Part shown: one piece after another, positions 40,071 through 60,435 of the stretch
Numbering within the stretch: the first letter of the stretch is position 1
How the letters are laid out: every line of letters starts with the position of its first letter
Origin: a virus
Length of the DNA: 64,000 nucleotides
Reading direction: 5' to 3' (one strand)
Virus record (IMG/VR): IMGVR_UViG_3300045988_123906
Made by a program: the position numbers and the translations under genes
The notes under the pieces: model-generated
Told to the model about the DNA's origin: nothing
The model's input: the letters and a program-made list of their open reading frames with translations, nothing else
Databases searched by the model: none

Positions 40071-40586
40071 TCAAATTGTGTCTTCCAACTCAACAGACAG
40101 GGAGTCCTCCAGCGCCTTAATCGCACTGCGGCTGTCCAGCTCACCGGTTTCGATCTTTTTCTTAGCCTCAGATGCAATCGCATCCTTGGTGCCGCCCGGC
40201 AGTGTCGGGACGATCTTCTTAATCTCATCGGCGGGCATTGTAAACACGTCATTGAAGTTGTCGGTGGTCAGACTATTTTTGTAATAGCGCTCAACGCCAA
40301 GCTTCTTGATAATGGCGGGATCATCGATCAAAATCCAATTTTCCTCAAAGAACCGGCGCTGATTACCGCGCATAGAAACCAGCTCGCGATACTCCATTTC
40401 CTGAACATCGCCAAAAGCCTCCCACTCAACGGTATAGCCTGGATTCAAGGTGGACTTATAGATTAGATTACCAGCTGTGCCATTGCGGCACTCCACCATG
40501 GTCTCGTTTGTAATTTCGACTACGGGCTCGGTCGCTACTGGAGCAGCAGCTTTCGCGGCTGTAGTCTTAGTTGTACGTCTTGCCAT
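40071..40586 (-). CDS. hypothetical head-module protein (171 aa)
   Basis: ORF with SD TAGGAGGAA and TGA stop. Confidence 0.55.
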   Translation of the reverse strand: MARRTTKTTAAKAAAPVATEPVVEITNETMVECRNGTAGNLIYKSTLNPGYTVEWEAFGDVQEMEYRELVSMRGNQRRFFEENWILIDDPAIIKKLGVERYYKNSLTTDNFNDVFTMPADEIKKIVPTLPGGTKDAIASEAKKKIETGELDSRSAIKALEDSLSVELEDTI

Positions 40587-40655
40587 TCGTTCCTCCTATT
40601 TAATAAAAGAAGCGGCAGGGTTGTTGCCCCACCGCTATTCAACTCAAATTATCGA

Positions 40656-41651
40656 TCAGGCCATCTTATATGCGCCGAAGTCACGATCAAACACAATGGC
40701 AATGCCGGTGCGCTTCATCATCAGGAACTCCTGGCTCATATCGGCGTTGTTCATCGAGGTGCCCATCAGCATAGTGACATCACCCTCGGTAACGCGCTTA
40801 ATGGGCTTGGTGTCGCCAGCAAACACGTACAGGGTCTTGTCATCCAGGATGAAATCGGTGGTGCCGGTGGCGTGACGCTGCTTCACAGCAATCAGCTCAG
40901 TACCATTGAAGCGGCCAAAGTGACCCATTGCGTACATATCTTCCTTGGCGGAATCAGACACAACGGCAGTCTTGATCTGACGCAGAGCCTTACGGGTGCC
41001 AACAATCACAGCGGTCTCGCCAGTAGAAGCCTCAACGTGCTCGATCAGGTCCAGCAGCTTGTCCTCGTCAAAAGAGCCGGTCTCAATGTAGGGAGCATTC
41101 AGCTTGCTGAACATGCCAACGAATGCAGCATATGCAGAATCCAGCTCATCCTTGGTGAAGGACTTGGAAACGATATCAACAAACTTGTTAAAGTCGATAC
41201 GGCCAGCCAGAACACGGTTCAGCTCCTCGTAGATCTTAATAGCGTGCAGCTGAGTATTGACGGTGATGTCAGTACCAGCTTCCAGACGCTGACGGCGCAC
41301 GCCCTGAGTACCCTCGGCGATATCGGCAACAGCAAACAGGCACTCGCGCTCGATGTGGAACTTGGGAGTGTCGCCCAGAGCCAGGTTGCGATCCTCGACC
41401 ATGTTCATAAAGAACTCGTCGCCCTTCAGACCTTCCTCAGAAATAACATTGACCAGCTCCTCAACAATAGCGAACACCTTGGAGCAGCTGCCATCACGCA
41501 GAGCCTTAATGTCCAGCTTGGTGGAACCGCCATTTGCCTCAACCAGAGCCTTGCGCAGAGCCTCCTGGGTGTCGTTCACAGAATAATCACCAGCAACGTG
41601 GCCCTTGTAGCCATCGAGAGCCAGCTTGACCAGATTAGAATCAATAGCCAT
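40656..41651 (-). CDS. major capsid protein (331 aa)
   Basis: Positioned after the scaffold and decoration genes. Strong SD, high-GC3 codon usage and capsid-like sequence. Confidence 0.7.
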   Translation of the reverse strand: MAIDSNLVKLALDGYKGHVAGDYSVNDTQEALRKALVEANGGSTKLDIKALRDGSCSKVFAIVEELVNVISEEGLKGDEFFMNMVEDRNLALGDTPKFHIERECLFAVADIAEGTQGVRRQRLEAGTDITVNTQLHAIKIYEELNRVLAGRIDFNKFVDIVSKSFTKDELDSAYAAFVGMFSKLNAPYIETGSFDEDKLLDLIEHVEASTGETAVIVGTRKALRQIKTAVVSDSAKEDMYAMGHFGRFNGTELIAVKQRHATGTTDFILDDKTLYVFAGDTKPIKRVTEGDVTMLMGTSMNNADMSQEFLMMKRTGIAIVFDRDFGAYKMA

Positions 41652-41728
41652 GGTATAAACCTCCTATAATAAAAATGGCCGCCCGCTTTAAACGGACGGC
41701 TTTATGTTGATTTCTTAAAACTTCGGAA

Positions 41729-42241
41729 TCACTTCAGGGTGATCATGTAGTAGGTATAGCGACCATCGCCAAAACCAACAGTCTCAACGAAGTCAATGCA
41801 GCCAAAGGTCTTGTCATCAGCAGCTTCCTGAATCTTGATCTTGGTGTCATCGGCAGCAAAACCGACATACTTGCCCTTTGCGGGGGTGCCGTTAAATGCC
41901 TCGGCAGTAGCAGAGAAGCCACCCTTAGAAACATTCAGAGCATAAACACGCACGGGCTTGCCAGCCTCGTTGACCCACTCGGGCAGATAGTGTGCCACGG
42001 TCTGATCATAGAACAGCTCAACGCCAGCGGTCAGATACAGGTCAGCAACGGTGGAAGTTGCGGTGGGAGCGGTAGCCTTATAGACCTCGCGACCCAGCTT
42101 CTCGCCCAGAACAACCAGCTGAGCGTTATCGATCTCAGCAGCATCGGACTTCTTGTAGAAAATAGCACTCTCCAGCTGAGCACCATCCAGGGTGCCACCC
42201 AGCTTGTCAATGCGCACAACAGCATGCTTATTATTAGCCAT
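41729..42241 (-). CDS. head decoration-like protein (170 aa)
   Basis: Lies between the scaffold and major capsid genes, as in SPP1-like head modules. Confidence 0.4.
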   Translation of the reverse strand: MANNKHAVVRIDKLGGTLDGAQLESAIFYKKSDAAEIDNAQLVVLGEKLGREVYKATAPTATSTVADLYLTAGVELFYDQTVAHYLPEWVNEAGKPVRVYALNVSKGGFSATAEAFNGTPAKGKYVGFAADDTKIKIQEAADDKTFGCIDFVETVGFGDGRYTYYMITLK

Positions 42242-42269
42242 AATTATGTACCTCCTAATTTTTGGTAAA

Positions 42270-43898
42270 TTACTTATTGCCGAGATAGTGTTCGATCAGA
42301 CCACCATACGCGACATCTGAACCGTTCTGGGTGCCACCCACGCCAAAGCGGACAGTTCCTTTGTTGTTTTTATTGGGAACATAAGAAAACTCAGCACTCT
42401 TACGGCCAACCAGCGCATAGCACTTAGTCTCCAGATCGGAGTAGCTGATCTCCTTGTTCTCTTTCAGTGCGATATACTCAGCATCTGCGCCAAGCTTCTC
42501 GTCAAAGGTGGCAAACAGAGCGTTGCGCTTTGCTTCCATCTCAGCGGCTTTTGCGTCAGCTTCAGCCTGCTGATATGCTTCTAGCTTTGGTTTGATCTCG
42601 CTAACTTCATTGGCCGCTTTAGTAAAGCTGTCAGACAGTTCAACAAGTTTGTCAGTCAAAGTAGAAAACATAGTGATTAGGCCAGGCATTACGTCGCCAT
42701 TATCCCAGTCCTCATAAATAACTTTTTTGCGTTTAATATTCTCGTACTCCAGAACAACATTGTCACCGTTCATAGAGTAGGGAATACCCATCAGTTGATA
42801 TGTGCCAGAATCGGTTACAATAACTTCGCTGCCCTGAATATCAGTAAGCCAATACTTAGGAATCATGCATTCATTGTCCCAACGAGAAGGAACCTGAACC
42901 TTAAGCAGCGCATTATAAACTTCATCACGAAGCTGATTAGCGGTCAAAGTAAATTCGCTGGACGTAGCGGGTTCGTCTTCTTCGGCTGGCGCAGTATTCT
43001 CAGCGGGAACCTCAGTTGTTGCATTTTCTGCACCTTCTTCAGGTGCGGCGTTTTCGGCAGGAGCAGCCTCAGATTCGGTCTTTGTCGCAGTATTCTCTGC
43101 GGCGGGAGTCTCAATCTCAGGATTCTCCACAGCGCCTTCTGCCACGGCATTTTCAGTCATAGCAGGATTCTTTTCATTTTCATTCATTGGCGTTGTATCT
43201 CCTTTCTCCTCATCGGATGGATTATCATTTTGCGCAGTATAGTTCTGCTGAATTGCTTGATACTCATAGAGCCGATCGCGGATCTGAGCAGTAATATCTT
43301 CAACAGAAAAATTGGCAGTAACGCAGCTGCCTGTCATAGCGGGCTTGATACTCGGATCAGTCGTAGACAGAATGCAGCAACCGTCAAATTTAAAAGACCC
43401 CACAGGAACGTTGCCGTTCTTATCTGCGGGGCCACAAGCCATATCGGTCAGCTCAACACTGTGATTCTTCGTACCATCACGGGTGAAAATATCTACAGGA
43501 TCGCTAAATTTTGTCCAAATCAAACCATCAACACGCAAATACTCCCGTTCAATACCGGTGCCGTCATCCTTAACGATCCAGCGAGGATTACAAGATTCAG
43601 GGATAACACCATAAGCTTGACCAGCATAGACGTACTTCACGTCTTTGTCGGTGATCCGCAGTTCATGTTCATGTCCTTTAAAGTCCTTGTCTTCCTCGTC
43701 AAGTTCATCTACAACGTAGCCCAGGATCGGCGTATTACGGATTGTCGGTACTGCTTTGTTGATCGCGTCTTTTGTGAAACTTGTCTTATTGAGGTTTGCT
43801 CCAGTGTGCATTACATCAATGCTGACATCAATGAAGCGAAAATCAGAAGATTCGTATTCGCCCTTCTTAATAAAAGAAACCGGATATTGTTGATTCAT
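42270..43898 (-). CDS. scaffolding protein, possible protease-scaffold fusion (542 aa)
   Basis: Acidic, low-complexity middle region and a coiled-coil C-terminus. Located directly downstream of the portal region. Confidence 0.5.
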   Translation of the reverse strand: MNQQYPVSFIKKGEYESSDFRFIDVSIDVMHTGANLNKTSFTKDAINKAVPTIRNTPILGYVVDELDEEDKDFKGHEHELRITDKDVKYVYAGQAYGVIPESCNPRWIVKDDGTGIEREYLRVDGLIWTKFSDPVDIFTRDGTKNHSVELTDMACGPADKNGNVPVGSFKFDGCCILSTTDPSIKPAMTGSCVTANFSVEDITAQIRDRLYEYQAIQQNYTAQNDNPSDEEKGDTTPMNENEKNPAMTENAVAEGAVENPEIETPAAENTATKTESEAAPAENAAPEEGAENATTEVPAENTAPAEEDEPATSSEFTLTANQLRDEVYNALLKVQVPSRWDNECMIPKYWLTDIQGSEVIVTDSGTYQLMGIPYSMNGDNVVLEYENIKRKKVIYEDWDNGDVMPGLITMFSTLTDKLVELSDSFTKAANEVSEIKPKLEAYQQAEADAKAAEMEAKRNALFATFDEKLGADAEYIALKENKEISYSDLETKCYALVGRKSAEFSYVPNKNNKGTVRFGVGGTQNGSDVAYGGLIEHYLGNK

Positions 43899-44110
43899 TC
43901 TGTTTTCACCTCCTCGTCAGCAAAATAAAAGCCCTGGCGAATCGCAACCTGCAACTCAGCCAGAGCATTTTCAAACACAGAATCGTATACAAAAACATAC
44001 TTGTTTGTTGGGTCTATTCGTAGCATCAGAGCGCCACGGTCGGTCAGGAACTTTGCCATCCCGGCGGAGTGTGCTCCGTGTACGATAACTTCATAAATCT
44101 CCTGACTCAT
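43895..44110 (-). CDS. hypothetical small protein (71 aa)
   Basis: SD AGGAGG. ATGA overlap with the scaffold gene. Confidence 0.5.
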   Translation of the reverse strand: MSQEIYEVIVHGAHSAGMAKFLTDRGALMLRIDPTNKYVFVYDSVFENALAELQVAIRQGFYFADEEVKTE

Positions 44111-45635: not shown

Positions 45636-47392
45636 TACAGTCCTCCCTTCTTTAATACAGGCGCTCTAAAGTTAAACGTGAGCGAAGTTGGCTTTTTATT
45701 CTTCTTCTCCATGCTTCGTTCAACTTGCTGCGCAATGTAATAGTTGTAAGACAGGGAAGAGTAGCGGTCTTTACGGCAGCCGGATTTCTCCTTGACTTTG
45801 ATAACGTTATTCACGGTTTCGTAGCCCAGATTTACAAGCTCGTTTACAGCAAGTCCGGTATTGATATATGGCATCTGTAGTGCGGCTCGTTCAGTAGGCG
45901 ACATTTTATCATAGCCTTTATAGATTTTGCGCAACTGGTCTTCACATCCGTACTCACTCTGAAGCAGATGGATACGTCCTTGCTGGAAACCGCTGCGTAA
46001 TCCAATGGCTACATCGCTATTAAACTGGGAGCTGCCCATAATAGCCTAGATGACCTTGCGAGCATTTTTGTCAGCACAGCGAGATGCGATTTCTTGATTG
46101 TTACAGCAGCTAATCGCAGGATACGTTTCGCCTGTTTCTGGGTCATACATATCGCGCATTAACAGGTCGACCAGAGGTAATCCAACGCCTCTACAGTCAA
46201 CCCCGATATAATCACAGTTGAAGTAATCGAAATACCGTCGCAGTTTTAGTGCCTGGTCTTGCGCACTCATACCCTCAACGTTCTCTGAATAGACAAAGTT
46301 GCTGGTATAGCGCCCTGATTTATTCGGCAGCATACAGTTCAAGAATATACTGGTTGCGTCGTTGTCGTTTTTGCGACTGCTCATCAATGCAATATCGGCA
46401 GTAAGAATTCGCACTTCACCATTTTTCTTTTTCGGCACATCCATAGCAGCTTGATTAAGTAAAAGATTCGGTGCGTAGAACGCCTTTTCAATGACGCGCG
46501 TTTTGTTGATGTCATCAAATTGAAATAAGCCGCCTTCGGTAGCACCAAGCCACTTACATTCGTTCTCCATTGCAAATGTCAAATCAGAAAAACTGGATTC
46601 ACTCATTTCATCTTCTACAGCCTCCTTCAACAGCAAGCCGCTCTTGATTGACATTTGATACGGGAAGGATACGCAGAAATATTTTTTATTAAAGTCGATC
46701 ATATTTACGAAGTAGTCCTGACATTTTTCATAGCTCCAATGGTTTTGGAACCAAGCAGAACTTAGATAGAATTCTTTATTTCGCTCTGCAAGATGTGCAT
46801 ATTGTGGCTTGTCCAAATATCCAGGATGACGAACAATATTCAGGAACTTCTTCAAAATCAAATCAATAACATCTTTAGATAGTAATCTATATTCATCACA
46901 GATAAGAAGTGTAGCTCGACTACCACGACTGCTATCTGTTGCAGTGACAACTTTGATATAGCTACCGTTCCTAAATATAATTTCTGCCTTTTGATTATTG
47001 ATATCGACCTTTTTGATTTCAGATCGTAGAAGGGGACTATTGGGGTAGATCTCCTTCATTATCTTTTCATCCAAAATACTGATAGATTGGCTTCTTACCT
47101 TACAGGCAATACAAACCTTGGAACCAGGCCATAGAATACATGTAATCACACAGAAAACTGCGGTTAGAAATGACTTACCAAGGCCACGAGCAGCAATGAA
47201 GCAGAAGCCGGTACATCTTACCATCAAAAACAATAGTAGCTCTTGGAATGGCTTCAATGTCAGGTTTAAATAGTCTTTTGCAAACCGCTGAGGATTCGCC
47301 CTATAAAATGACGCCCTCAGGGCAACTGCGTTCATTATTTTTTCTGATTTTGTATTCGCTACTTCCTTATCTGTTAATTTCTCTTTACTCAT
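45635..47392 (-). CDS. terL: terminase large subunit, 585 codons, in-frame TAG at 46046..46048
   Basis: Walker A ARGLGKS and Walker B LLICDEY. ORFs 46046..47392 and 45635..46039 are in the same frame, separated by TAG plus 2 codons. The downstream piece supplies the nuclease-side C-terminus (KDRYSSLSYNYY). Confidence 0.85.
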
Positions 47393-51608: not shown

Positions 51609-54152
51609 TTATTTCACCATCGCTTCATATATTTTCGGTTCAGCCAGACTATATCGCTGGCCAAGATATTCGTACTCGCCGTTCGGATCGTGAACTGGCA
51701 GCTGAACAGGAACCGGCTTGATATTTTCGACCACACCAGCGCCGGCCATGTGCCACAAGAACTTCTTGAATTTATTGGGATACTTCTCATAGCAAAGCAC
51801 TACAAGAATATTCGCCAGCTCTCTCACATCAGGACACACCAGCTTGCACTTGTTACGGTAGACATTGTAGATCGCCTGCCAGTTCGTTTCATATGTCTTG
51901 GCCTCTTCTTTGGTAATACGCGACTCAATGTCCTTATGATATAATTGCCAGTTGCGGCATTTCTTTTCGAACTCAAGTTGTTCCTTACGGCATTTGTTGA
52001 AGTCCAAGAAAATGGCCTCGATCTCGTCAAAGACTGCCTGGTCATAGGAGACCTCTGGGTCGTACATGATATGCCAATCAAAGCTGCCTGCGGGCTCTTT
52101 GCGCCACCGTACACCGCGCTCCCAACGCTCCAGACTCATGCAAAGCAGGTTCATATTGCTATGTGCCTTGCTGAGATTATGTAAACGTGCGTAGTAAGGA
52201 CCTGCATACTTCATAAAGTAGGGTAGGGGACGACCATAAGCTGCTACATTACGCGGGATCGGATACAGAACACCGGTTTTAGCATAATCGATAGCTTTTC
52301 CGTTGCAGATGCTCAAAAGCGAAATATTATCGTGATAAAGCTTCTTGGTCTTTTCCATGGTCGGAACCTTATTATGGTATGCAGTTGCGTAATTTGAAAT
52401 CTCGCCAATAGAACTCTTCAATCCGCGAATGGTGCAGGCGACTTTGTTCTTCACAATATCACATTCTGCTAACGCAGTGATCTTATCTTCAACATCGAGT
52501 GTAATAGGGATATTATCAGGAACACCACTCATCATCAGTGGATTATCGATGATTAGAACCAGGTCGCCGTCAAAATCAGAACCATTGAGTCTGGAAGCCA
52601 CGATGGATTTGATATTTACCATAGCAACATTCTGAAGATGGCTGCAGTATTTGCGGGTGTATTCGTTGTCTACAGCCTTGGCCTTTACATGCTCGGCAAC
52701 AGAAATATGGGGATTGCGCTCAATTAAGCGGTTTCCCTCCATCACACCACGACGATCAAAGCTGTAGAATTCACCGTCTTCAAGGCAGCCAGTCACAGGA
52801 AGGCCACCAATATGCTGTAACAGTGCAATAAGGTCAGGGGCCCAGAACTTAAAAGTAGCATTCATCCAAAGCCGACCGCACTTCATCTCATTGCGATATT
52901 TATCAAGCAGCGAGTGAATATAATCTTTGATTGCCGGCTCTTTTACCATCACTGGGTTGCGCAGGGCAGCAGCCATGTAATGATTCATTGGGTCGTTGTT
53001 CTCAGCAAGTAAACCAAGGAAGCAGTATGTATAAATCGGGTCGCCTTTGACAATATTCTGATACCAGGTAATGCTGTCATCAGCTAGATGCTTAAAAGAC
53101 TCATTGTCGAGCTGTAGATCTTGAATAACCTGATAGTTACTACGGGTGGAAAGCGGTTCTTGTTCAAGCGTAAAGTTCCATTTAGCCACACCAAGGCAGT
53201 TATCGTACTTCTTGAAAAGTTCCCAGTATCTCTCCCAGTCAGAATAGGTACCAGTTTTCTTGAAATATTTGAGACCCTTGTACATTGAAGCAGTAATAAT
53301 AATCATTGGTTCGCTGCCAGGTGTTACATCATATTCCATGCCCCAGATGTCCTTGATTTTTGTAACGCCGTTCTCTTCAAAAAAACGCTCGTAATCAATC
53401 TCGTGTAAACAACCCTTGATATATGGAGCACGCAGAATCAAACTGTTCATCCGTTCAGAAGTGCCGATACGCTTTTCAAATTCGCGCATGATACTTGGGT
53501 GGCAGATTCCAGCACCATCAAATGCGTTGATATCAATGTCGACTGTTTTTGTGGCGATATCTTTCTGAGTCCAAGTACGTTCTTTACCTGTTTTGCGGTC
53601 ATTAAACGTCACAGTCTTGTCTACCAGATACTCGATCCACTGATTTTTGATCGTTGTCATATAGTCTGGAACAACAATCATTTTGGGGTACCAGTTCTCC
53701 AGGCAGTGGCAGCTGCTCAGCATCAAACCACGATAAGCATAATACTTACTCAGGACGGTTGGTGTTTCAGAAAAATCTAGTTCCATGCTTACACGGCGGT
53801 CGAGTTCAGGGTAGATATGTCGCTCAACAAAACTTAACATGCTCTGACGGACCATACTTGCACTACGTTCACAGAACAGATATTTTTGGCCATTAAATTT
53901 GAATCCATGCTCTACTAAATGATCGATAGCATCAGGGTGGTTCTGGCCGCCTGTTGCATCAACAAAGATAATAAAGCGCTGGAATTTATTCTAATCATCG
54001 GAAATGAGCCGAATCTGTCTAAACAGCATATCGTCACCCTGCAAGACCTTATACTGCTCCATCTCTTCTGGTGTCAGTTTGAAATTATAGTTATGAGAAA
54101 CGATATAATTCAAGTTAAATTTTAGTACGCTATATAATGGTGGACTAAACAA
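51609..54152 (-). CDS. YonO-like single-subunit RNA polymerase (two-barrel family), 847 codons, in-frame TAG at 53991..53993
   Basis: ERNPHISVAEH...RLNGSDFDGDLV matches the RNAP beta-prime NADFDGD metal-binding loop context. GAGGAG SD and a TTG start at 54152. The N-terminal 99 codons are open across the TAG. Confidence 0.65.
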
Positions 54153-54165
54153 ATAATATCACTCC

Positions 54166-54528
54166 TCAATGAATCAAATTATTCCAGTGGTCGTTAAAGT
54201 GGTCATCGCCGTCATCTTCACCATCGCCGCCACCCATATCATCGTCGCCATACATGATCTCATCGTAGGCCGCCAGACACTTACTGATAAACACAACTAA
54301 AATGGGCGTAACCACCAGGGCAGTAAAGAGCACACGTCCTAGAATCTGATATGTAAGCACAAATACAACAAGCATTTCTGCGATAGTAAACATCCAATCA
54401 ACAAAGTCAACGGAACTTAAAACACCAGCGATAAGTACCATCAGCGGAATAGAGTTAACGCGGATCTCCTGAATATCGTCTCGCTCTGTATCGTTCTCTC
54501 TGCCCGGCTTCTTAGGCTCTTTGTCCAT
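54166..54528 (-). CDS. membrane protein with an acidic C-terminus (120 aa)
   Basis: TAAGGAGGT before ATG 54528. Hydrophobic segments followed by a DDDMGGGDGEDDGDD tail. Confidence 0.55.
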   Translation of the reverse strand: MDKEPKKPGRENDTERDDIQEIRVNSIPLMVLIAGVLSSVDFVDWMFTIAEMLVVFVLTYQILGRVLFTALVVTPILVVFISKCLAAYDEIMYGDDDMGGGDGEDDGDDHFNDHWNNLIH

Positions 54529-54544
54529 ACTATTGTGTACCTCC

Positions 54545-54727
54545 TTAGTCCTCGTCGTCGTCGTCCCACATTGTGCGCCGCTTCCGCCGCTCTGATTGCC
54601 GCTGGCGTTCGCCGCTTTCCTGAGCCTTCTCAACTTCCTGCAAAAACTGATTCTCGATCATACGCTGTTTGCGGGCGTTACGCATATAGCTGCTCTTAGA
54701 TACCTTATCACGCTTGCGATCACTCAT
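54545..54727 (-). CDS. small highly basic protein with a DDDDED tail (60 aa)
   Basis: GAGGAGGA before ATG 54727. Ends in TAA. Confidence 0.5.
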   Translation of the reverse strand: MSDRKRDKVSKSSYMRNARKQRMIENQFLQEVEKAQESGERQRQSERRKRRTMWDDDDED

Positions 54728-54995
54728 CGTCGCCGTCCTCCTCATCATAACCATAATCATCTGGGCAGTACATCTCATGGAACAAATATCGTGTCAAAGA
54801 AGGGGACATAGGTGTACCATCTTCCATCCACAACGTATCATAAAGCGATGCATTGCCGATCAGTTCCTGCTATTCTGCATATACCTGAATCGCGTCAAGG
54901 ATATCCTCGTAAGTTACATCATAATCGCGCACAGCATCAGCTACGGCAAATCCAATATTATAAATATCCTGTTTTGAAAAGTCGTTTTCTTTCAT
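54720..54995 (-). CDS. hypothetical protein, 91 codons, in-frame TAG at 54870..54872 (not in the ORF track)
   Basis: TAAGGAGGAA before ATG 54995. MKENDFSKQD...QVYAE[TAG]QELIGNAS... runs to TGA 54720. Confidence 0.5.
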
Positions 54996-55006: not shown

Positions 55007-55276
55007 TTATATCAGCGGCTCACAAATACATGGTCCTGTCAGTAAATCTATTTTATGTTCAAGTTCTGCGATCCGAGCTTGTAATTGATCAATCGCAGTT
55101 TGATACGAGGTTGTTGTTGCTCTTATAGTATCTATACGTTCTACTGCAAAATGCGACAGAGTATTTGCTTCATCGACTTTGATAATCGCATGGTTTACTG
55201 TATCGTGCATAGAAAATAAATGATTATCTATTTCTTCAACTCTTACAGTTAGCTCTTGTTCATCCAATATTTTCAT
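55007..55276 (-). CDS. CxC-tail family member a (89 aa, coiled coil, ends PCICEPLI)
   Basis: ORF with SD AGGAG and the conserved C-terminal tail. Confidence 0.6.
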   Translation of the reverse strand: MKILDEQELTVRVEEIDNHLFSMHDTVNHAIIKVDEANTLSHFAVERIDTIRATTTSYQTAIDQLQARIAELEHKIDLLTGPCICEPLI

Positions 55277-55281
55277 CTCCT

Positions 55282-55596
55282 TTACAATAGACTTTCACAA
55301 TAATATTCACTATTTGTATTGATATCTCCATTTATCAGTTTAAGATATCGTCTGTACATCTGTTCAGCATAAGGCCCAGCAATTTCGAATTCAAATCCGT
55401 TATTTAATAAGAAAAGTCTTACTTTCCTTTTAACTACAAACGTTTCATCTGGTTCTCCATAGCGGCAAACCGTCATATCGTCTTCGTCTATTTGAAATCT
55501 GAAATTATCAAATTCTATTTTACAATCATTTTCAATTTCGATATGTAATTGTAGGGCTGCTTGTTGTTGTACTTCTTCACTGATATATTTTTTCAT
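55282..55596 (-). CDS. CxC-tail family member b (104 aa, ends YYCESLL)
   Basis: ORF whose start ATG lies inside the tail codons of the upstream member. Confidence 0.6.
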   Translation of the reverse strand: MKKYISEEVQQQAALQLHIEIENDCKIEFDNFRFQIDEDDMTVCRYGEPDETFVVKRKVRLFLLNNGFEFEIAGPYAEQMYRRYLKLINGDINTNSEYYCESLL

Positions 55597-55886
55597 AATA
55601 GACTCTCACAGTAACACTCATTGTGAATAGATACATTGTATTCTTCTTTTGGAAAATTTTTCGATATATAGTCTTTGATAAGCTTTTGTAAAGTTTCATC
55701 AGTAACTATGGTGTTATAATCAACCCATTTGTCGAATTGAATAGTGTGATGTGAATTGCCATGATTTACAGTGTCTATGGTCGATCCATTTTCAAATTGA
55801 ATTCGTACAGGCTGCTTCCAATCTGATGGATATATGTATATCTTATCATCGGGTATCAATAATTGATTGTTCATATCGTGCCTCAT
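55593..55886 (-). CDS. CxC-tail family member c (97 aa, ends ECYCESLL)
   Basis: ATG 55886 forms an ATGA overlap with the upstream stop. Confidence 0.6.
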   Translation of the reverse strand: MRHDMNNQLLIPDDKIYIYPSDWKQPVRIQFENGSTIDTVNHGNSHHTIQFDKWVDYNTIVTDETLQKLIKDYISKNFPKEEYNVSIHNECYCESLL

Positions 55887-56209
55887 AATAGTGATTCGCA
55901 GACACACTCGTTTTCTGCCTCGACAACATTAGGAATTGCAATCGTCCACAGTGTGTCGTGTCCCATTCCATAGTATTTTACTTCCGCTTGAACTTCACGC
56001 TGGTTACCATTTGCGTCAATGTAAGATACGATTTCGTTTGTGGTTCGCAGTGGTTTATCGCTTGGCAGAGCCCATGTGAATCCATCTTTCGCCCAGTCAA
56101 AAGTAAACTCGCCACTGTTGATATCATCGGGATATCTGTACTTACACCATCGCAACGTGCGATCATCATGCAGCGTATCAAATCTATTCATTGTTGGCAC
56201 CTCTGTCAT
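55883..56209 (-). CDS. CxC-tail family member d (108 aa, ends ECVCESLL)
   Basis: ORF with an ATGA overlap. Confidence 0.6.
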   Translation of the reverse strand: MTEVPTMNRFDTLHDDRTLRWCKYRYPDDINSGEFTFDWAKDGFTWALPSDKPLRTTNEIVSYIDANGNQREVQAEVKYYGMGHDTLWTIAIPNVVEAENECVCESLL

Positions 56210-56670
56210 ACCAAGCTGTCACACACGCATTCATCCCGCTGCACTTCTTTAGGCGCAGTTGGCGGTGTAAACTCAACCTCGCTCGGATCGTATGTCATCA
56301 AAGAACAGGCATCGATTCGCACATTCGGGAAGCACATGAACTTAAAGCATCGGTCAATATCATCAACAACAAGTGGCTTATCCTCTAAGTGCAATCCACG
56401 ATAATTATCGGGAGGACAAGTAGTTGTTATCACGTGAATACTGTATTCTCCGCGAGCTCTGCTTTGTAAATCCACTATAAGGCATTGATGATCAACCCTA
56501 TACCCCTAATATTGAATATCAAGGTTCCTTGCGATTTCCTTGATATAGTCCTGTGCACATAATATAGCCGTCCCGCCCATCGGCACCAAGATGTTACAGT
56601 TGTTCTTAACAGCGTATTCGCAGATCGCATATGTACGTCCACCGCCTCGTGGCGCTAATATTCTTTCCAT
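56206..56670 (-). CDS. CxC-tail family member e, 154 codons, in-frame TAG at 56506..56508 (ends ECVCDSLV)
   Basis: AAGGAGGG before ATG 56670. The frame is open across the TAG into ORF 56206..56475. Confidence 0.55.
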
Positions 56671-56682
56671 ATTTCACCCTCC

Positions 56683-57255
56683 TTACAATAGCGGTCTGCA
56701 CACACATTCGCACTGTTGATCAGCCAGAGCATCACGGATTACATCGTCCAGACATTCTGGTGTGATGGAGAACTGCTGGAACAAGTCAAACTGATTGTTG
56801 TTCATCAAATAGTTCATGGTGATCCGCCGCATTTTGTTCTCTGAAATATACTTCGCATCCTCTTCACCATACAGCCGCACGATCTCCTTGAAAAATTCAA
56901 AAGTATCGGTCAGCGCCAGCCTATCGTCAAAATAGAATGTCGTATATTGTGCGCCGAATTTATCTTTATTGAATATATTCCAAAAATCTTCGGGTGATTT
57001 ACAGATTGCGGTCTCCTTGCGATGCTTTTGCACAGTATCCATGCGTTCATACCAGTCACACACTGTGTCATAGATCGATGGCCTTACGAATAAAACGCGC
57101 ATTATTTCTTCTCCTTCAAAAACTGTTTTTGAGTTATGATATTGCGCTCCATATTTCAACGTCCTGAGTTGGTTCCTTTTCTTATGGAGTCTAGCACCAG
57201 ATGCATTTGCTAAGGCTCTATATGTGTTAATCAAATTATTTATTCTGTCTGTCAT
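56683..57255 (-). CDS. CxC-tail family member f (190 aa, ends CECVCRPLL)
   Basis: ATG 57255 forms an ATGA overlap with the upstream stop. Confidence 0.6.
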   Translation of the reverse strand: MTDRINNLINTYRALANASGARLHKKRNQLRTLKYGAQYHNSKTVFEGEEIMRVLFVRPSIYDTVCDWYERMDTVQKHRKETAICKSPEDFWNIFNKDKFGAQYTTFYFDDRLALTDTFEFFKEIVRLYGEEDAKYISENKMRRITMNYLMNNNQFDLFQQFSITPECLDDVIRDALADQQCECVCRPLL

Positions 57256-57488
57256 AATAAGCTCTCGCATATACATTCGTTTTCTGATTCTGGATAGTAG
57301 GGGATTGGATAACTGTATTGAGCCGCACGTCGATCTTCAGAGCAATTTCCTGGACGAAGTATATGTCGCGGATGAAAAGATAAGTCATGACCAAGCTCCC
57401 AGCGAAATCCTTGATAATCGAACCAGGTAGTATCTTGATTTTTGCTTAGAGTATCATAGAGATTGTTCATCACTTTATCGATTGTCAT
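57252..57488 (-). CDS. CxC-tail family member g (78 aa, ends ECICESLL)
   Basis: ORF with an ATGA overlap with the upstream small gene. Confidence 0.6.
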   Translation of the reverse strand: MTIDKVMNNLYDTLSKNQDTTWFDYQGFRWELGHDLSFHPRHILRPGNCSEDRRAAQYSYPIPYYPESENECICESLL

Positions 57489-57772: not shown

Positions 57773-59164
57773 TTAGTCTAACAGGTCAGCCAGTTGTGCT
57801 GTCTCGCTGCGTTCCGTCTTGTTCAGGTAGACATATCCAAAGTGCGGGTTACCAGCCAGACACTGAATTGCTTTACGCATTCCGCTGTTATTTTCAAACA
57901 CGGCCTCGTCAGTCTGCTTCAGGTCACCATCAAGCCACAGCATAGATCCCTCACCAACACGGCCGAGTAACAGCTGTACATGCTCTTTGGTCAGATTCTC
58001 AGCCTCTGAAACCATAATAATTGCATTCTTGTAGTCGCGGCCACGAATAAATCCAAGGTGAGCTACTTCTACCTGCCCATTATTGATCCAGTATTCCAAA
58101 CCAGCCTTGCCGCCCAAGTGATCAGCCAGAGGGCCAGCAAAAGAAGCAGCGCCGAGCTTCTCTAGTAGGGTACCGGGTAGTGCGCCCAGCTCCTTGGTAT
58201 TCTTGACTTCGATGTTATTGCGAATCCAGATCAGCTTCTCAACTTTGTGCTTCTCGATCATATCAATAGCAGAGGACACCATAAGCATTGTCTTGCCGCT
58301 GCCGAATGTTCCAGCCAGCATTTTAACGGTAATATCGTCGTTCTGCAGCATATCAAATGCGAGCTTCTGTTGATCATTGAGTGGTTTTACGTCGCCAGTG
58401 AAGCGATTACTGATCTTTTTGTATTTGAGTGGTACATATTTCTTGCCATTCCATCGTAGCCAGCCTACCGCATTACCTGCCGGCATATCATCGTCTACTG
58501 TGTCTGGATCACGAACAATCAGATAGCCATTCACTGGAGTGTCAAACAGATTCTGATATGTATAGCCTTCATCGTGGGTCTGATATGCCATCGCCATGGC
58601 TTCCTCGCCGCCTTCATCAAGAGTGACTTCGGTCTAGCCAGTGTAGTTATTGTTGGCGCTTACTGCTGCATCGGGATAGGTGAATTCGATCGGCAGGTAA
58701 AGAATGCCGCTGGCAATATTGGCGCAACTTAGGTCGCTGGTAACGAACTTGAAAGAATCAATGTTGGCCTGGATCTGTCGCTGTGCTTCCGGGAGCCCGG
58801 CTTCAATCGCGTCATCCAGGTTGCGCTGCATCTCGTCCAGATACCAGCGGGCGGTTGCCATGATTGTCGCGTCGTTGTTGTCACTAATCGGTTTGCCATC
58901 CAGAATATAGAACAGGGAAGACATTGGGACTGCCACTACCATAAAGGTGTTGTCGTCGTGATGCTCGGCCAGCAGGCGGGTTACAGTACGGGCCTTATAG
59001 CGGATCTCTTCGCTCTTCTTGCCGCTTGTTTTGATCTCTTCCAGCTCATGCAGTGTCATATCGGCAATCAGAAACGGCTCTGTTGCACCAGAGGCTGTTG
59101 CACTGGCAGGTTCGAAAGCGGCGGCTCCCAAATCAAGAAGCGCGGAGGTGTCATAAAACTTCAT
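57773..59164 (-). CDS. phoH: PhoH2-like PIN-PhoH ATPase, 463 codons, in-frame TAG at 58634..58636
   Basis: The N-terminus is PIN-like (FYDTSALLDL). The C-terminus is PhoH-like (Walker A GTFGSGKT, GALPG, FIRGRD, Walker B IIMVSEAEN). The two ORFs are in the same frame with an open 12-codon linker. Confidence 0.75.
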
Positions 59165-59225
59165 TAACGGGTTATCCTCCTTTAATAATGATATTGTAAA
59201 GTGTGATTGACTACTGAAAAGATAA

Positions 59226-59258
59226 GCTCGCAGCTGTGGAGAGAACTGCGGGCTTTTT
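59226..59258. other. GC-rich hairpin with flanking T/A runs in the phoH leader
   Basis: GCTCGCAG...CTGCGGGC followed by TTTTT on the plus strand. On the minus strand it lies between the promoter and the SD. Confidence 0.4.
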
Positions 59259-59269
59259 CTTTATACCTT

Positions 59270-59298
59270 ATTATACACCAATGACGTGGTAAAAGCAA
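59270..59298 (-). promoter_or_regulatory. sigma70-type promoter for the minus-strand early operon
   Basis: On the minus strand: TTGCTT (59293..59298), 17 nt spacer, TATAAT (59270..59275). Confidence 0.5.
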
Positions 59299-59337
59299 TA
59301 GTTTTGTGCAAAATACCGGAATAAAATAATCTGTTGT

Positions 59338-59403
59338 AAAAATAAATAAAATATAGTAAAAATGGCAGAAAAATTATTAAAATTAAGCAAAAATGAGCAA
59401 AAA
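59338..59403. repeat. seven phased A4-5 tracts with a period of about 10 bp
   Basis: A-runs start at 59338, 59348, 59358, 59369, 59379, 59389 and 59399. Confidence 0.8.
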
Positions 59404-59469
59404 TAATGCATTTTAAGCGTTTCTGCGGCGCTTTTGGGGCGCTGTTACGCGGCGATCAAGATACAACTG

Positions 59470-59760
59470 CGTGAAGATTGGGGTGAAAAACATTATTGAC
59501 GCGGAGCGTTTTATAACGATAATACGTTGTTTACCGGAGACAAAATCGGGGGTTAAATATGGGCGTTTTACGGGTGCGCAGATAGGGGAGATGACGGAAG
59601 ATTATGGGGTGATCAACAGGTGATTTTGGGTGCTGGTGACTGCGAATGAGGGGCGAATGTGGATGGATGATTGTTGCGTGGAGGAGGTGAGTGAGAGGCG
59701 GGTGAGGTGCGAAAACCGGGTGATTTGGTACGGGCTGGGGAGATGGAATAACTGGTACGC
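59470..59760. repeat. C-depleted, G-rich noncoding block with repeated GGGTGA motifs
   Basis: GGGGTGAAAAAC, GGGGTGATCAAC, AGGTGATTTTGG, GGGTGAGGTGCG and GGGTGATTTGG. There are very few C on the plus strand from about 59570 to 59758. Confidence 0.6.
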
Positions 59761-60435
59761 ACGACCCAAACTCGACCCCTTTTCCAATTTTTAACATCCC
59801 CCCGGTATGGCCCGAAAAGTCTAGGACTCATGCGGGTTTTCGGTGAATGCTACCTTCCGTTATTAGGTAGTATTCGAGTGCTGGAAATCTGGAATTTTCT
59901 TTTATACCTTATCTATATATAGGGGAAATCCTTGCATGGATGTTTCGTGCAAAAAATTTAATATGCTATTATGTAGTCACTCCAAGGGGCTACGGAAACA
60001 AGGCCCCGGGGAGTAGTCGCACCTTGAAAATTGCAAAGTTTGGATTTTCCCATGTGGGCGGTTTATACCGTGCCGGGTTTTCCGGTCAAGTGGTTATCCC
60101 TTGCCATTCCAAAACATGGGTCTCCTATCTGAGCAATTAGTGCGCCCAAACCCCCGATGGCCAAACATTACTGGCATAATTCCCAAGAACGTGGGAGAAG
60201 TTGCGGGGATGGTGTACCTTGACAACAGAATACAGGCAGTTCCGAGAACAACACAATAGGAATTGTTGCAACAAGGTCAGAGCTACTGTTGTAGAGCATG
60301 GAAAACGCCAAGGTCAGAGCTGGCGACAATTAACAAGCTCCAGAGAAATAAGTGTTTGATGGGTTTGGAACCCTAGAGGAGAAAGAAACCTTACTTGGTT
60401 ACAATTGTAGCCATTTTACATAAAGCCGGGCGCTT

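Follow-up and report, generated by a model that had tools for sequence, protein, structure and literature searches.

A cysteine-containing C-terminal tail common to unrelated small proteins of a gene array in uncultured human-gut phages

Short terminal address tags are rare and useful, and those of phage T4 and of the encapsulins became tools for packaging foreign proteins. The internal proteins of T4 (IPI, IPII, IPIII and Alt) are diverse, defence-type proteins that have only a capsid targeting sequence (CTS) in common (PMC3012670), and the cargo proteins of encapsulins carry a common C-terminal loading peptide, which attaches to the inner face of the HK97-fold shell and is both required and sufficient for loading (PMC7355545). 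Here we describe an array of seven consecutive small genes, at positions 55007-57488 of a 64,000-nucleotide stretch of viral DNA (IMG/VR record IMGVR_UViG_3300045988_123906; the whole stretch is called the window below), whose products have unrelated bodies and end in the same cysteine-containing tail. To our knowledge, the T4 CTS is the only precedent for polymorphic, unrelated small phage proteins that share just a terminal peptide. The concept of a terminal address peptide is therefore known; judged by its residues, the present tail differs in defining features from the T4 CTS, the encapsulin peptide, the clamp-binding motif, the CaaX box and the ssrA tag.

The tails and degrons read by AAA+ machines, including the SspB XB tail, the ssrA LAA end and the SpoIIAB LCN end, are short disordered C-termini with hydrophobic last residues, and they deliver unrelated proteins to one machine; we know of none with C-x-S-L-L, and of none that occurs in dialects or on an array of phage genes. 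The [ST]-x-Phi-COOH ends (Phi, hydrophobic residue) of human papillomavirus E6 and influenza NS1 dock on the PDZ domain family of the host, and the PDZ proteins of bacteria are mostly extracytoplasmic. In the RRNPP/arbitrium peptides (AimP, Phr, PapR), the last 5-8 residues are functional and the pherotypes co-evolve with the receptor; the precursors have about 40 amino acids and a signal peptide, with one per system, and arbitrium is found in SPbeta-like phages. SPbeta-type phages also encode sublancin, an S-glycosylated peptide. The genes of the array, in the order of transcription, are listed below.

57252-57488, minus strand: g7, 78 amino acids, end ENECICESLL, tail and stop at 57252-57278; member of fam6, a family in 42 related loci
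56683-57276, minus strand: g6 (fam0), end CECVCRPLL followed by TAA, tail at 56683-56709; universal array member
56206-56670, minus strand: fam1 gene including its N-terminal part, about 155 amino acids, small P-loop-like protein with PRGGGRT and VVDDID segments and an in-frame TAG at 56506-56508
56206-56475, minus strand: g5, the tailed open reading frame of the fam1 gene, end DECVCDSLV, tail at 56206-56232
55883-56209, minus strand: g4, end ENECVCESLL, tail at 55883-55909
55593-55886, minus strand: g3, end NECYCESLL, tail at 55593-55619
55282-55596, minus strand: g2 (fam2), 104 amino acids, end SEYYCESLL followed by TAA, tail at 55282-55308
55007-55276, minus strand: g1, coiled-coil protein, end GPCICEPLI followed by TAA, tail at 55007-55033; last array gene

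All seven open reading frames (ORFs) were confirmed on the minus strand with the ends that the initial annotation had reported (PCICEPLI, YYCESLL, ECYCESLL, ECVCESLL, ECVCDSLV, CECVCRPLL and ECICESLL), and its list of synonymous codon differences among the tails was correct. The bodies are otherwise unrelated, as it had stated: when the tails were stripped, the best BLASTP match had E = 0.028 over 21 residues. The proteins, 78-197 amino acids long, found no family match in Pfam, PHROG, NCBIfam or PADLOC. The proposed consensus with a CxC pair had to be narrowed, since C-x-[SP]-L-[LIV]-end stands and the first Cys does not (Tyr in g2; Phe or Leu in other genomes); across relatives the invariant core consists of Cys(-5), Leu(-2) and [LIV](-1), with Ser usual at -3. 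The motif is specific to the array. No further ORF of the 64-kb window ends in C-x-[SP]-L-[LIV], the approximately 25 small ORFs of the other genome arm have no common terminal motif, and outside the arrays, 2.43 Mb of related loci yielded only 4 six-frame ORFs as chance matches.

The genes are consecutive, because the 54-amino-acid ORF between g5 and g6 (56506-56670), which has no tail, is the N-terminal part of the g5 gene, split off by the in-frame TAG at 56506-56508 (minus strand). The same TAG cuts fam1 in 21 close relatives and is replaced by a Tyr codon in others (DIQY-Y-GYRVDHQC); it represents either a fixed nonsense mutation with GTG restart or amber suppression. General stop-codon recoding was considered and dropped, as long ORFs are intact under the standard code and no tRNA genes were found in the window. 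Five ATGA overlaps between neighbouring genes had been claimed, and four were found, at the ends of g3, g4, g5 and g7; g1, g2 and g6 stop at TAA. Of the four ATGA starts, two are likely to be real, those of g2 and g6. The terminus of g7, TTATGA, overlaps the g6 start, which is likely the ATG at 57255 (MTDRINN..., 190 amino acids). For g4 and g3 the likely starts are the ATG codons at 56191 (MNRFD...) and 55874 (MNNQ...), the downstream ATG being preferred because it has the better Shine-Dalgarno site and was picked by a gene caller in a relative. Behind g1, a separate GGAGG site lies 3' of the stop, followed by the next gene.

To follow the tail in related phages, 75 related loci, all from uncultured human-gut phages, were gathered from IMG/VR with the RNA polymerase as anchor, and the array was present at the same place in 75 of 75. 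They contain 503 tailed ORFs, 4-8 per genome; the bodies belong to at least 16 families with no relationship to one another, and gene order and content are shuffled from array to array. When the families were defined by body homology alone, the core motif was found in 442 of 454 ORFs (14 families), and all 12 motif-less ORFs belonged to a single family, f47, which occurs with and without the tail. Body-homology searches of 5.8 billion proteins recovered the tail in 118 of 120 fam0 and 118 of 120 fam1 homologues; the ground for refutation named by the initial annotation, absence of the motif from homologues in related phages, thus did not refute the observation. In a set of 1.84 billion representative proteins the fam0 profile found 20 proteins, nearly all from this clade, and matches in IMG/VR to the DNA pattern of the most frequent tail type (dialect A, below) were confined to the clade as well. 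One array protein is indexed in 278 blocks of the assembly collection. No such array was found in Thomasclavelia phage TR-TP2, the nearest cultured phage by RNA polymerase (41% identity), or between PhoH and terminase of Brevibacillus phage Sundance. The end of TR-TP2 gp126 (L258 6639-7088), encoded upstream of the homologous RNA polymerase, reads NEDCPSLVS, which is tail-like with one extra residue; this single case may be chance or a relic. Literature searches with the motif strings returned nothing relevant, and no published description of a C-terminal tag common to a phage gene array was found.

The conservation acts on the peptide. Substitutions in the tail were counted among 1,606 orthologous pairs, with the following result.

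Cys(-5): 199 synonymous, 4 non-synonymous
Leu(-2): 295 synonymous, 1 non-synonymous
Ser(-3): 338 synonymous, 84 non-synonymous
[LIV](-1): 298 synonymous, 130 non-synonymous

In the 30 codons of the body before the tail, the ratio of non-synonymous to synonymous substitutions was 1.10. The tails use every one of the six Leu codons, the two Ser codon families and the two Cys codons, and this synonymous turnover with fixed residues bears out the earlier view that the tail is conserved at the protein level and is not a DNA repeat. The rival reading, in which the tail is a by-product of a ribosome-binding site, a translational-coupling cassette or a recombination junction, can draw on the shuffled gene order of the arrays and on the ATGA junctions, where codons -4/-3 read AGGAGY (AGGAGT or AGGAGC) for 43 of the 47 B tails and GAGAGY for 38 of the 67 A tails and so put a Shine-Dalgarno sequence 6-8 nucleotides ahead of the next start. 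About half of the tails, however, end at TAA followed by their own downstream GGAGG; there the codons are non-Shine-Dalgarno (AAATCG, CACAGT, GAGCCG), the peptide C-x-S/P-L-L is kept, and the motif is therefore selected as a peptide. Switches of Ser between AGY and TCN, together with the tail on the terminal gene of every array, speak likewise against a nucleotide by-product, a reading that is largely refuted already and that we regard as extremely improbable. The overlapping nucleotide signal raised by the initial annotation is accordingly present at the overlaps and secondary as an explanation, since the peptide is kept equally well without overlap; dual coding accounts in part for the choice of residue -4 and of the Ser codon.

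The residues upstream of the core vary between genomes and agree within a genome, so that dialects can be distinguished.

Dialect A: [NDS]-E-C-Phi-C-E-S-L-L, 52 loci
Dialect B: [KR]-[PS]-[FL]-x-C-[RKH]-S-L-L, 23 loci
Dialect C: xC[RK][VI]LL, two adjacent genes of L266
Dialect D: [KR]LCYCRSL[LI] twice, with QPLHCESLL, in L267
Dialect E: ECxCETL[LI], four genes of L263

Pure A or pure B arrays were found in 74 of 75 genomes. The families fam0 (g6-like), fam1 (g5-like) and fam2 (g2-like) occur in both dialects, each with the dialect of its genome, and the dialects of L263, L266 and L267 are likewise common to unrelated neighbour genes. Recent gene conversion is not the explanation in L267, because two near-identical tails differ at several synonymous sites. 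Absence of the tail is also documented. In L264, fam1 and fam0 stop before the tail and no tailed gene is present, while the downstream neighbours and the RNA polymerase are conserved; in L263, fam0 has no tail and four neighbours are tailed; and distant fam0 homologues without the tail occur. In the f47 gene, a single C-to-T change (CAA to TAA; L007 at about 6715 against L001 at about 6718) ahead of an intact tail sequence removes the tail, which makes the L007 gene a natural tail-deletion allele. The array has also moved as one block between genomes that are alike elsewhere, and its end is marked by a sharp boundary. The tail is thus modular: its gain, loss or truncation does not depend on the body, the tails of a genome change together, and the system as a whole is either there or missing.

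As for the bodies, the AlphaFold model of g6 (28-sequence alignment) has an alpha/beta core at residues 59-188 with a predicted local distance difference test score of about 90, and its last nine residues are unstructured and of low confidence. Foldseek searches of the PDB with this model gave weak flavodoxin/CheY-like matches only (best E about 0.01, TM score about 0.3). Short linkers, in which Pro, Thr, Asn and Glu abound, precede the tails. Within the tails the conserved positions alternate (-7 hydrophobic or Cys, -5 Cys, -3 Ser, -1 Leu), a pattern that would fit a peptide joining its partner as a beta-strand. The fam1 proteins contain an invariant PRGGGRT (Walker A-like, with Arg for Lys) and KPVVIDDID (Walker B-like), by which they look like miniature P-loop nucleoside triphosphatases. 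In an hhalign comparison of fam1 with phage terminase the motifs were aligned in the right order with a probability of 1% and E = 0.048; a terminase origin of fam1 was dropped, as this alignment is topologically sensible and not significant. A segment I-x-F-x-N-G-S-x-I is common to g3 (55593-55886) and the N-terminal extensions of fam0 homologues (P0110-P0120), and it resembles the terminase strand IIFRNGSYIKVV (46046-47392; best local E = 0.017); this resemblance may hint at an origin of some array bodies from pieces of terminase. The 'ENEC' match to terminase covers four residues and was put down to chance. Two further candidates were dropped: for a split-intein N-fragment the register does not fit and dialect B has no first Cys, and cleavage of the T4 gp21 type at Phi-x-E is contradicted by dialect B, which has no Glu.

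The tail is probably a C-terminal short linear motif, serving as a docking or address tag that is read by a common partner. The array would then present a free C-terminal Phi-x-C-x-S-L-L on a flexible linker, with every second residue turned to the same side, as in beta-strand addition; one common receptor would read it, any protein put in the cassette array would be brought to the same place, and co-evolution of the receptor with residues -6 to -9 would produce the genome-specific dialects. We infer that such a single receptor exists. In the version in which the partner is a phage head component, which the comparisons suggest tentatively, accessory proteins would be loaded into the procapsid and delivered with the DNA. 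The head is favoured because of the T4 and encapsulin precedents, the position of the array in a morphogenesis operon and the linkage of head genes to dialect, and a docking tag with the head as its favoured receptor is the best explanation overall, one we hold with reserve. Its most specific form is possible and still doubtful: in SPbeta-like gut phages, a dialect-coded, Cys-containing C-terminal cargo tag would load a swappable accessory set, plausibly of anti-defence proteins, into the capsid for co-injection. If so, the receptor pocket co-evolves with the tag, and arrays and head genes must match. With regard to the functions proposed by the initial annotation, a targeting or packaging tag is thereby favoured, and a CxC metal or redox site is weakened, as one Cys only is invariant.

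The T4 CTS, like the tail, is a terminal address peptide outside the fold; it has about ten residues and is all that polymorphic, fast-turnover, unrelated small proteins have in common (PMC3012670). The pattern of unrelated polymorphic proteins with the tag alone in common is found here in at least 16 body families and a variable array content. The T4 tag, in contrast, is N-terminal (MKTYQEFIAE-like), has another sequence and is cut by the prohead protease, whereas the present tail is C-terminal on proteins with unrelated N-termini and has an invariant Cys and genome-specific dialects; encapsidation is proven in T4 and putative for the array proteins. With the encapsulin cargo peptide the tail shares its place at the C-terminus of unrelated proteins and its shortness, and binding to a shell is putative for the tail; the encapsulin peptide, however, is Gly/Ser/Leu-rich and has no Cys, as opposed to Phi-x-C-x-S-L-L, and its cargo gene lies beside the shell gene, whereas the capsid gene here is 13-16 kb from the array. 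Unlike arbitrium, the system consists of 3-8 folded proteins of 80-200 amino acids that have no signal peptides, and a TPR-type receptor was not found.

Almost all genes of the window are on the minus strand. From the divergent intergenic region of about 1.2 kb, the order is PIN-domain protein, PhoH, the array, three small conserved genes, YonO-like RNA polymerase, YonG-like protein, terminase, portal, YonD-like 542-amino-acid protein, 170-amino-acid scaffold-like protein, YonB-type capsid protein and tail genes. The features that bear on the search for a partner are as follows.

59193-59220, minus strand (59220-59193): sigma-70-like site ahead of the PIN and PhoH genes
58634-59164, minus strand: PIN-domain protein, among the first genes of the array's operon
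57773-58597, minus strand: PhoH-like ATPase, among the first genes of the array's operon
54870-54995, minus strand: f39 remnant, tail-less, just downstream of the array
54545-54778, minus strand: f1, small charged protein, tail-less, just downstream of the array
54166-54528, minus strand: f2, predicted membrane protein of 120 amino acids, tail-less, just downstream of the array
51609-53855, minus strand: YonO-like single-subunit RNA polymerase (Pfam RdRP, DFDGD motif)
46046-47392: terminase
40071-44110, minus strand: head block, with 71-amino-acid ORF, YonD-like 542-amino-acid protein, 170-amino-acid scaffold-like protein, YonB-type capsid protein and 171-amino-acid protein
41729-42241, minus strand: 170-amino-acid scaffold-like gene, just upstream of the capsid gene
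40656-41651, minus strand: YonB-type capsid protein

A partner that reads the dialect should differ between A and B genomes, which was examined by co-variation. A and B genomes can share an RNA polymerase that is 99.8% identical, a PhoH that is 96% identical, and terminase, scaffold-like and connector proteins that are 94-100% identical, so these five are not dialect-specific partners. PhoH, PIN and RNA polymerase were rejected as receptors, since their alleles are common to both dialects or B-like in A genomes, and f39, f1 and f2, which co-vary by linkage, are unlikely as dedicated receptors, as they persist in the tail-less lineage. The f1 gene is never common to A and B (closest A-B pair 83%), which is explicable by its adjacency to the array. 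Besides f1, only four non-array genes are never common to both dialects.

Capsid protein: closest A-B pair 86%, 15 fixed differences
171-amino-acid protein: closest A-B pair 85%, 16 fixed differences
YonD-like 542-amino-acid protein: closest A-B pair 86%
71-amino-acid ORF: closest A-B pair 83%

The products of these four genes are candidate receptors on the strength of this pattern. In four A genomes with an otherwise B-like backbone, exactly the head block is non-B too, as predicted for a capsid-bound tag. The scan could not be widened with a tape-measure anchor, for which there were too few B genomes. The capsid and 171-amino-acid genes (40071-41651; L141-L214) form a tightly co-inherited pair, and the 170-amino-acid scaffold-like gene keeps 98-99% identity across lineages with a 17% difference in the capsid gene, a contrast from which very local recombination in the head module follows.

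Several observations weigh against the docking tag or its head version. The array lineage tracks most other structural genes as well (adjusted Rand index 0.8-0.9), the 15 fixed capsid differences are about what is expected for one private branch, and dialect A occurs with three capsid types that are 79-87% identical to each other. In the four A recombinants (a3), one crossover inside fam1 accounts for the arrangement: they are of B type from PhoH up to the fam1 body, and of A type from the fam1 tail rightwards. The head-gene linkage may therefore be lineage history only. Dialect purity can in part come from tight linkage within a 2.5-kb block, and a mixed-dialect genome exists (L050). No prohead protease was recognised in the head block, the probable host-type promoter at the operon start would suit an early function, and the absolute invariance of the Cys hints at chemistry, such as a metal or a covalent bond, beyond pure docking.

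That the tail docks on a host hub (ClpXP, ClpCP, FtsH, the sliding clamp or a PDZ-like reader) or is a degron is nearly as likely as a head partner, and likewise doubtful; the array proteins would be adaptors or inhibitors, or would be destroyed on schedule, and the dialects would follow variation among hosts. A C-terminus that is free, hydrophobic and carried by a disordered linker suits such a role, as does the probable host-type promoter at the head of the operon. S-L-L-COOH fits a class I PDZ ligand and loosely resembles the clamp-binding QxSLL. Within 22 kb, moreover, the strict dialect split is confined to f1 (83%) and part of the head block, and f39, f1 and f2 persist in the tail-less lineage. 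Yet A and B genomes with a 99.8% identical RNA polymerase and near-identical terminase and connector probably have similar hosts, and their dialects differ. Most tails have the class I PDZ pattern [ST]-x-[LIV]; Pro stands at PDZ position P-2 in about half of the fam0 tails (57 of 120), Val or Ile takes the place of Ser in dialect C, the invariant Cys lies outside the PDZ core, and no PDZ partner was found. The Gln of the beta-clamp motif QL[SD]LF is missing, position -5 being Cys in 118 of 120 and 120 of 120 homologues and never Gln. The tail ends in SLL, PLL, SLV, PLI and similar residues instead of the ssrA-type LAA recognised by ClpXP, and an invariant Cys is atypical of known bacterial degrons.

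Two further alternatives place the function in the array itself or in an enzyme. In a self-assembly tag, the tails would bind each other or a universal member (fam0 or fam1), perhaps through a Cys-bridged metal, and form a hetero-oligomer. The transfer of the array as a unit, the array-wide dialects and the invariant Cys are compatible with this, and no external gene need co-vary; but a disordered tail of 8 residues that has one invariant Cys offers little on which specific oligomerisation could rest, and the arrays vary from 3 to 8 genes with free composition and shuffled order. Since fam1 is split by a stop in 21 genomes and fam0 lacks the tail in L263 beside four tailed neighbours, a universal member is unlikely as the hub, and self-assembly is improbable as a whole. 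Modification or cross-linking of Cys(-5), with or without Ser(-3), by a dedicated enzyme (thioether, acyl, glycosyl or similar to ribosomally synthesised and post-translationally modified peptides, RiPPs) is very improbable, although the Cys is absolutely and the Ser nearly conserved, two residues apart, and sublancin offers a precedent in SPbeta-type phages. Radical SAM, LanC, YcaO, glycosyltransferase and peptidase genes were not seen in the window or within 10 kb past either end, entire dialects have Pro, Thr, Val or Ile in the place of Ser, and the proteins are folded domains of 80-200 amino acids and not precursor peptides; accordingly, the array does not correspond to a RiPP precursor array, its products being folded proteins of 78-197 amino acids and a modifying-enzyme family being undetected in the neighbourhoods. 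A lipidation-like signal, also suggested earlier, finds no support, as the Cys is at -5 and not at the CaaX position, residue -4 is charged (Glu, Arg, Lys or His) and no modifying enzyme was found.

Returning to the docking tag as the preferred reading, an 8-residue tag singles out a whole class of 'dark-matter' phage proteins that resist annotation by other means, in a clade found repeatedly in metagenomes of the human gut, and it provides both a handle for the common partner and a simple rule for spotting new members. The dialects, the tail-less lineage and the point-mutant truncations amount to a natural experiment on the co-evolution of peptide and receptor. If the partner is the capsid, temperate Bacillota phages would be able to send proteins along with their DNA in a new way.

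Among cultured phages, SPbeta-like and Sundance-like siphoviruses of Bacillota stand closest to this one. An RNA polymerase scan of GTDB genomes for the host found nothing. The phage is temperate, as a tyrosine integrase gene lies just past the left end of the window (L259 16894-19758), with a helix-turn-helix protein and a FolD-like gene, after the lysis genes. The FolD-like gene matches metagenome bins only (labelled Faecalibacterium and Bacteroidales), which are probably phage contigs, so that the gene may be phage-borne. Between the divergent arms, window positions 59200-60400 hold about 1.2 kb that have no convincing ORF and carry promoter-like and terminator-like sites; this is probably a regulatory or origin region, and a host-type promoter at the operon start probably drives the array. 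The f2 protein has a very acidic, His-containing C-terminus (DDDMGGGDGEDDGDDHFNDHWNNLIH) and is kept in all relatives including the tail-less lineage. In some relatives (L137 13100-16480; L020, L048) the RNA polymerase gene is found in pieces or has additional ORFs (275 and 323 amino acids) ahead of it, which suggests an insertion (intron or homing element) or a frameshift.

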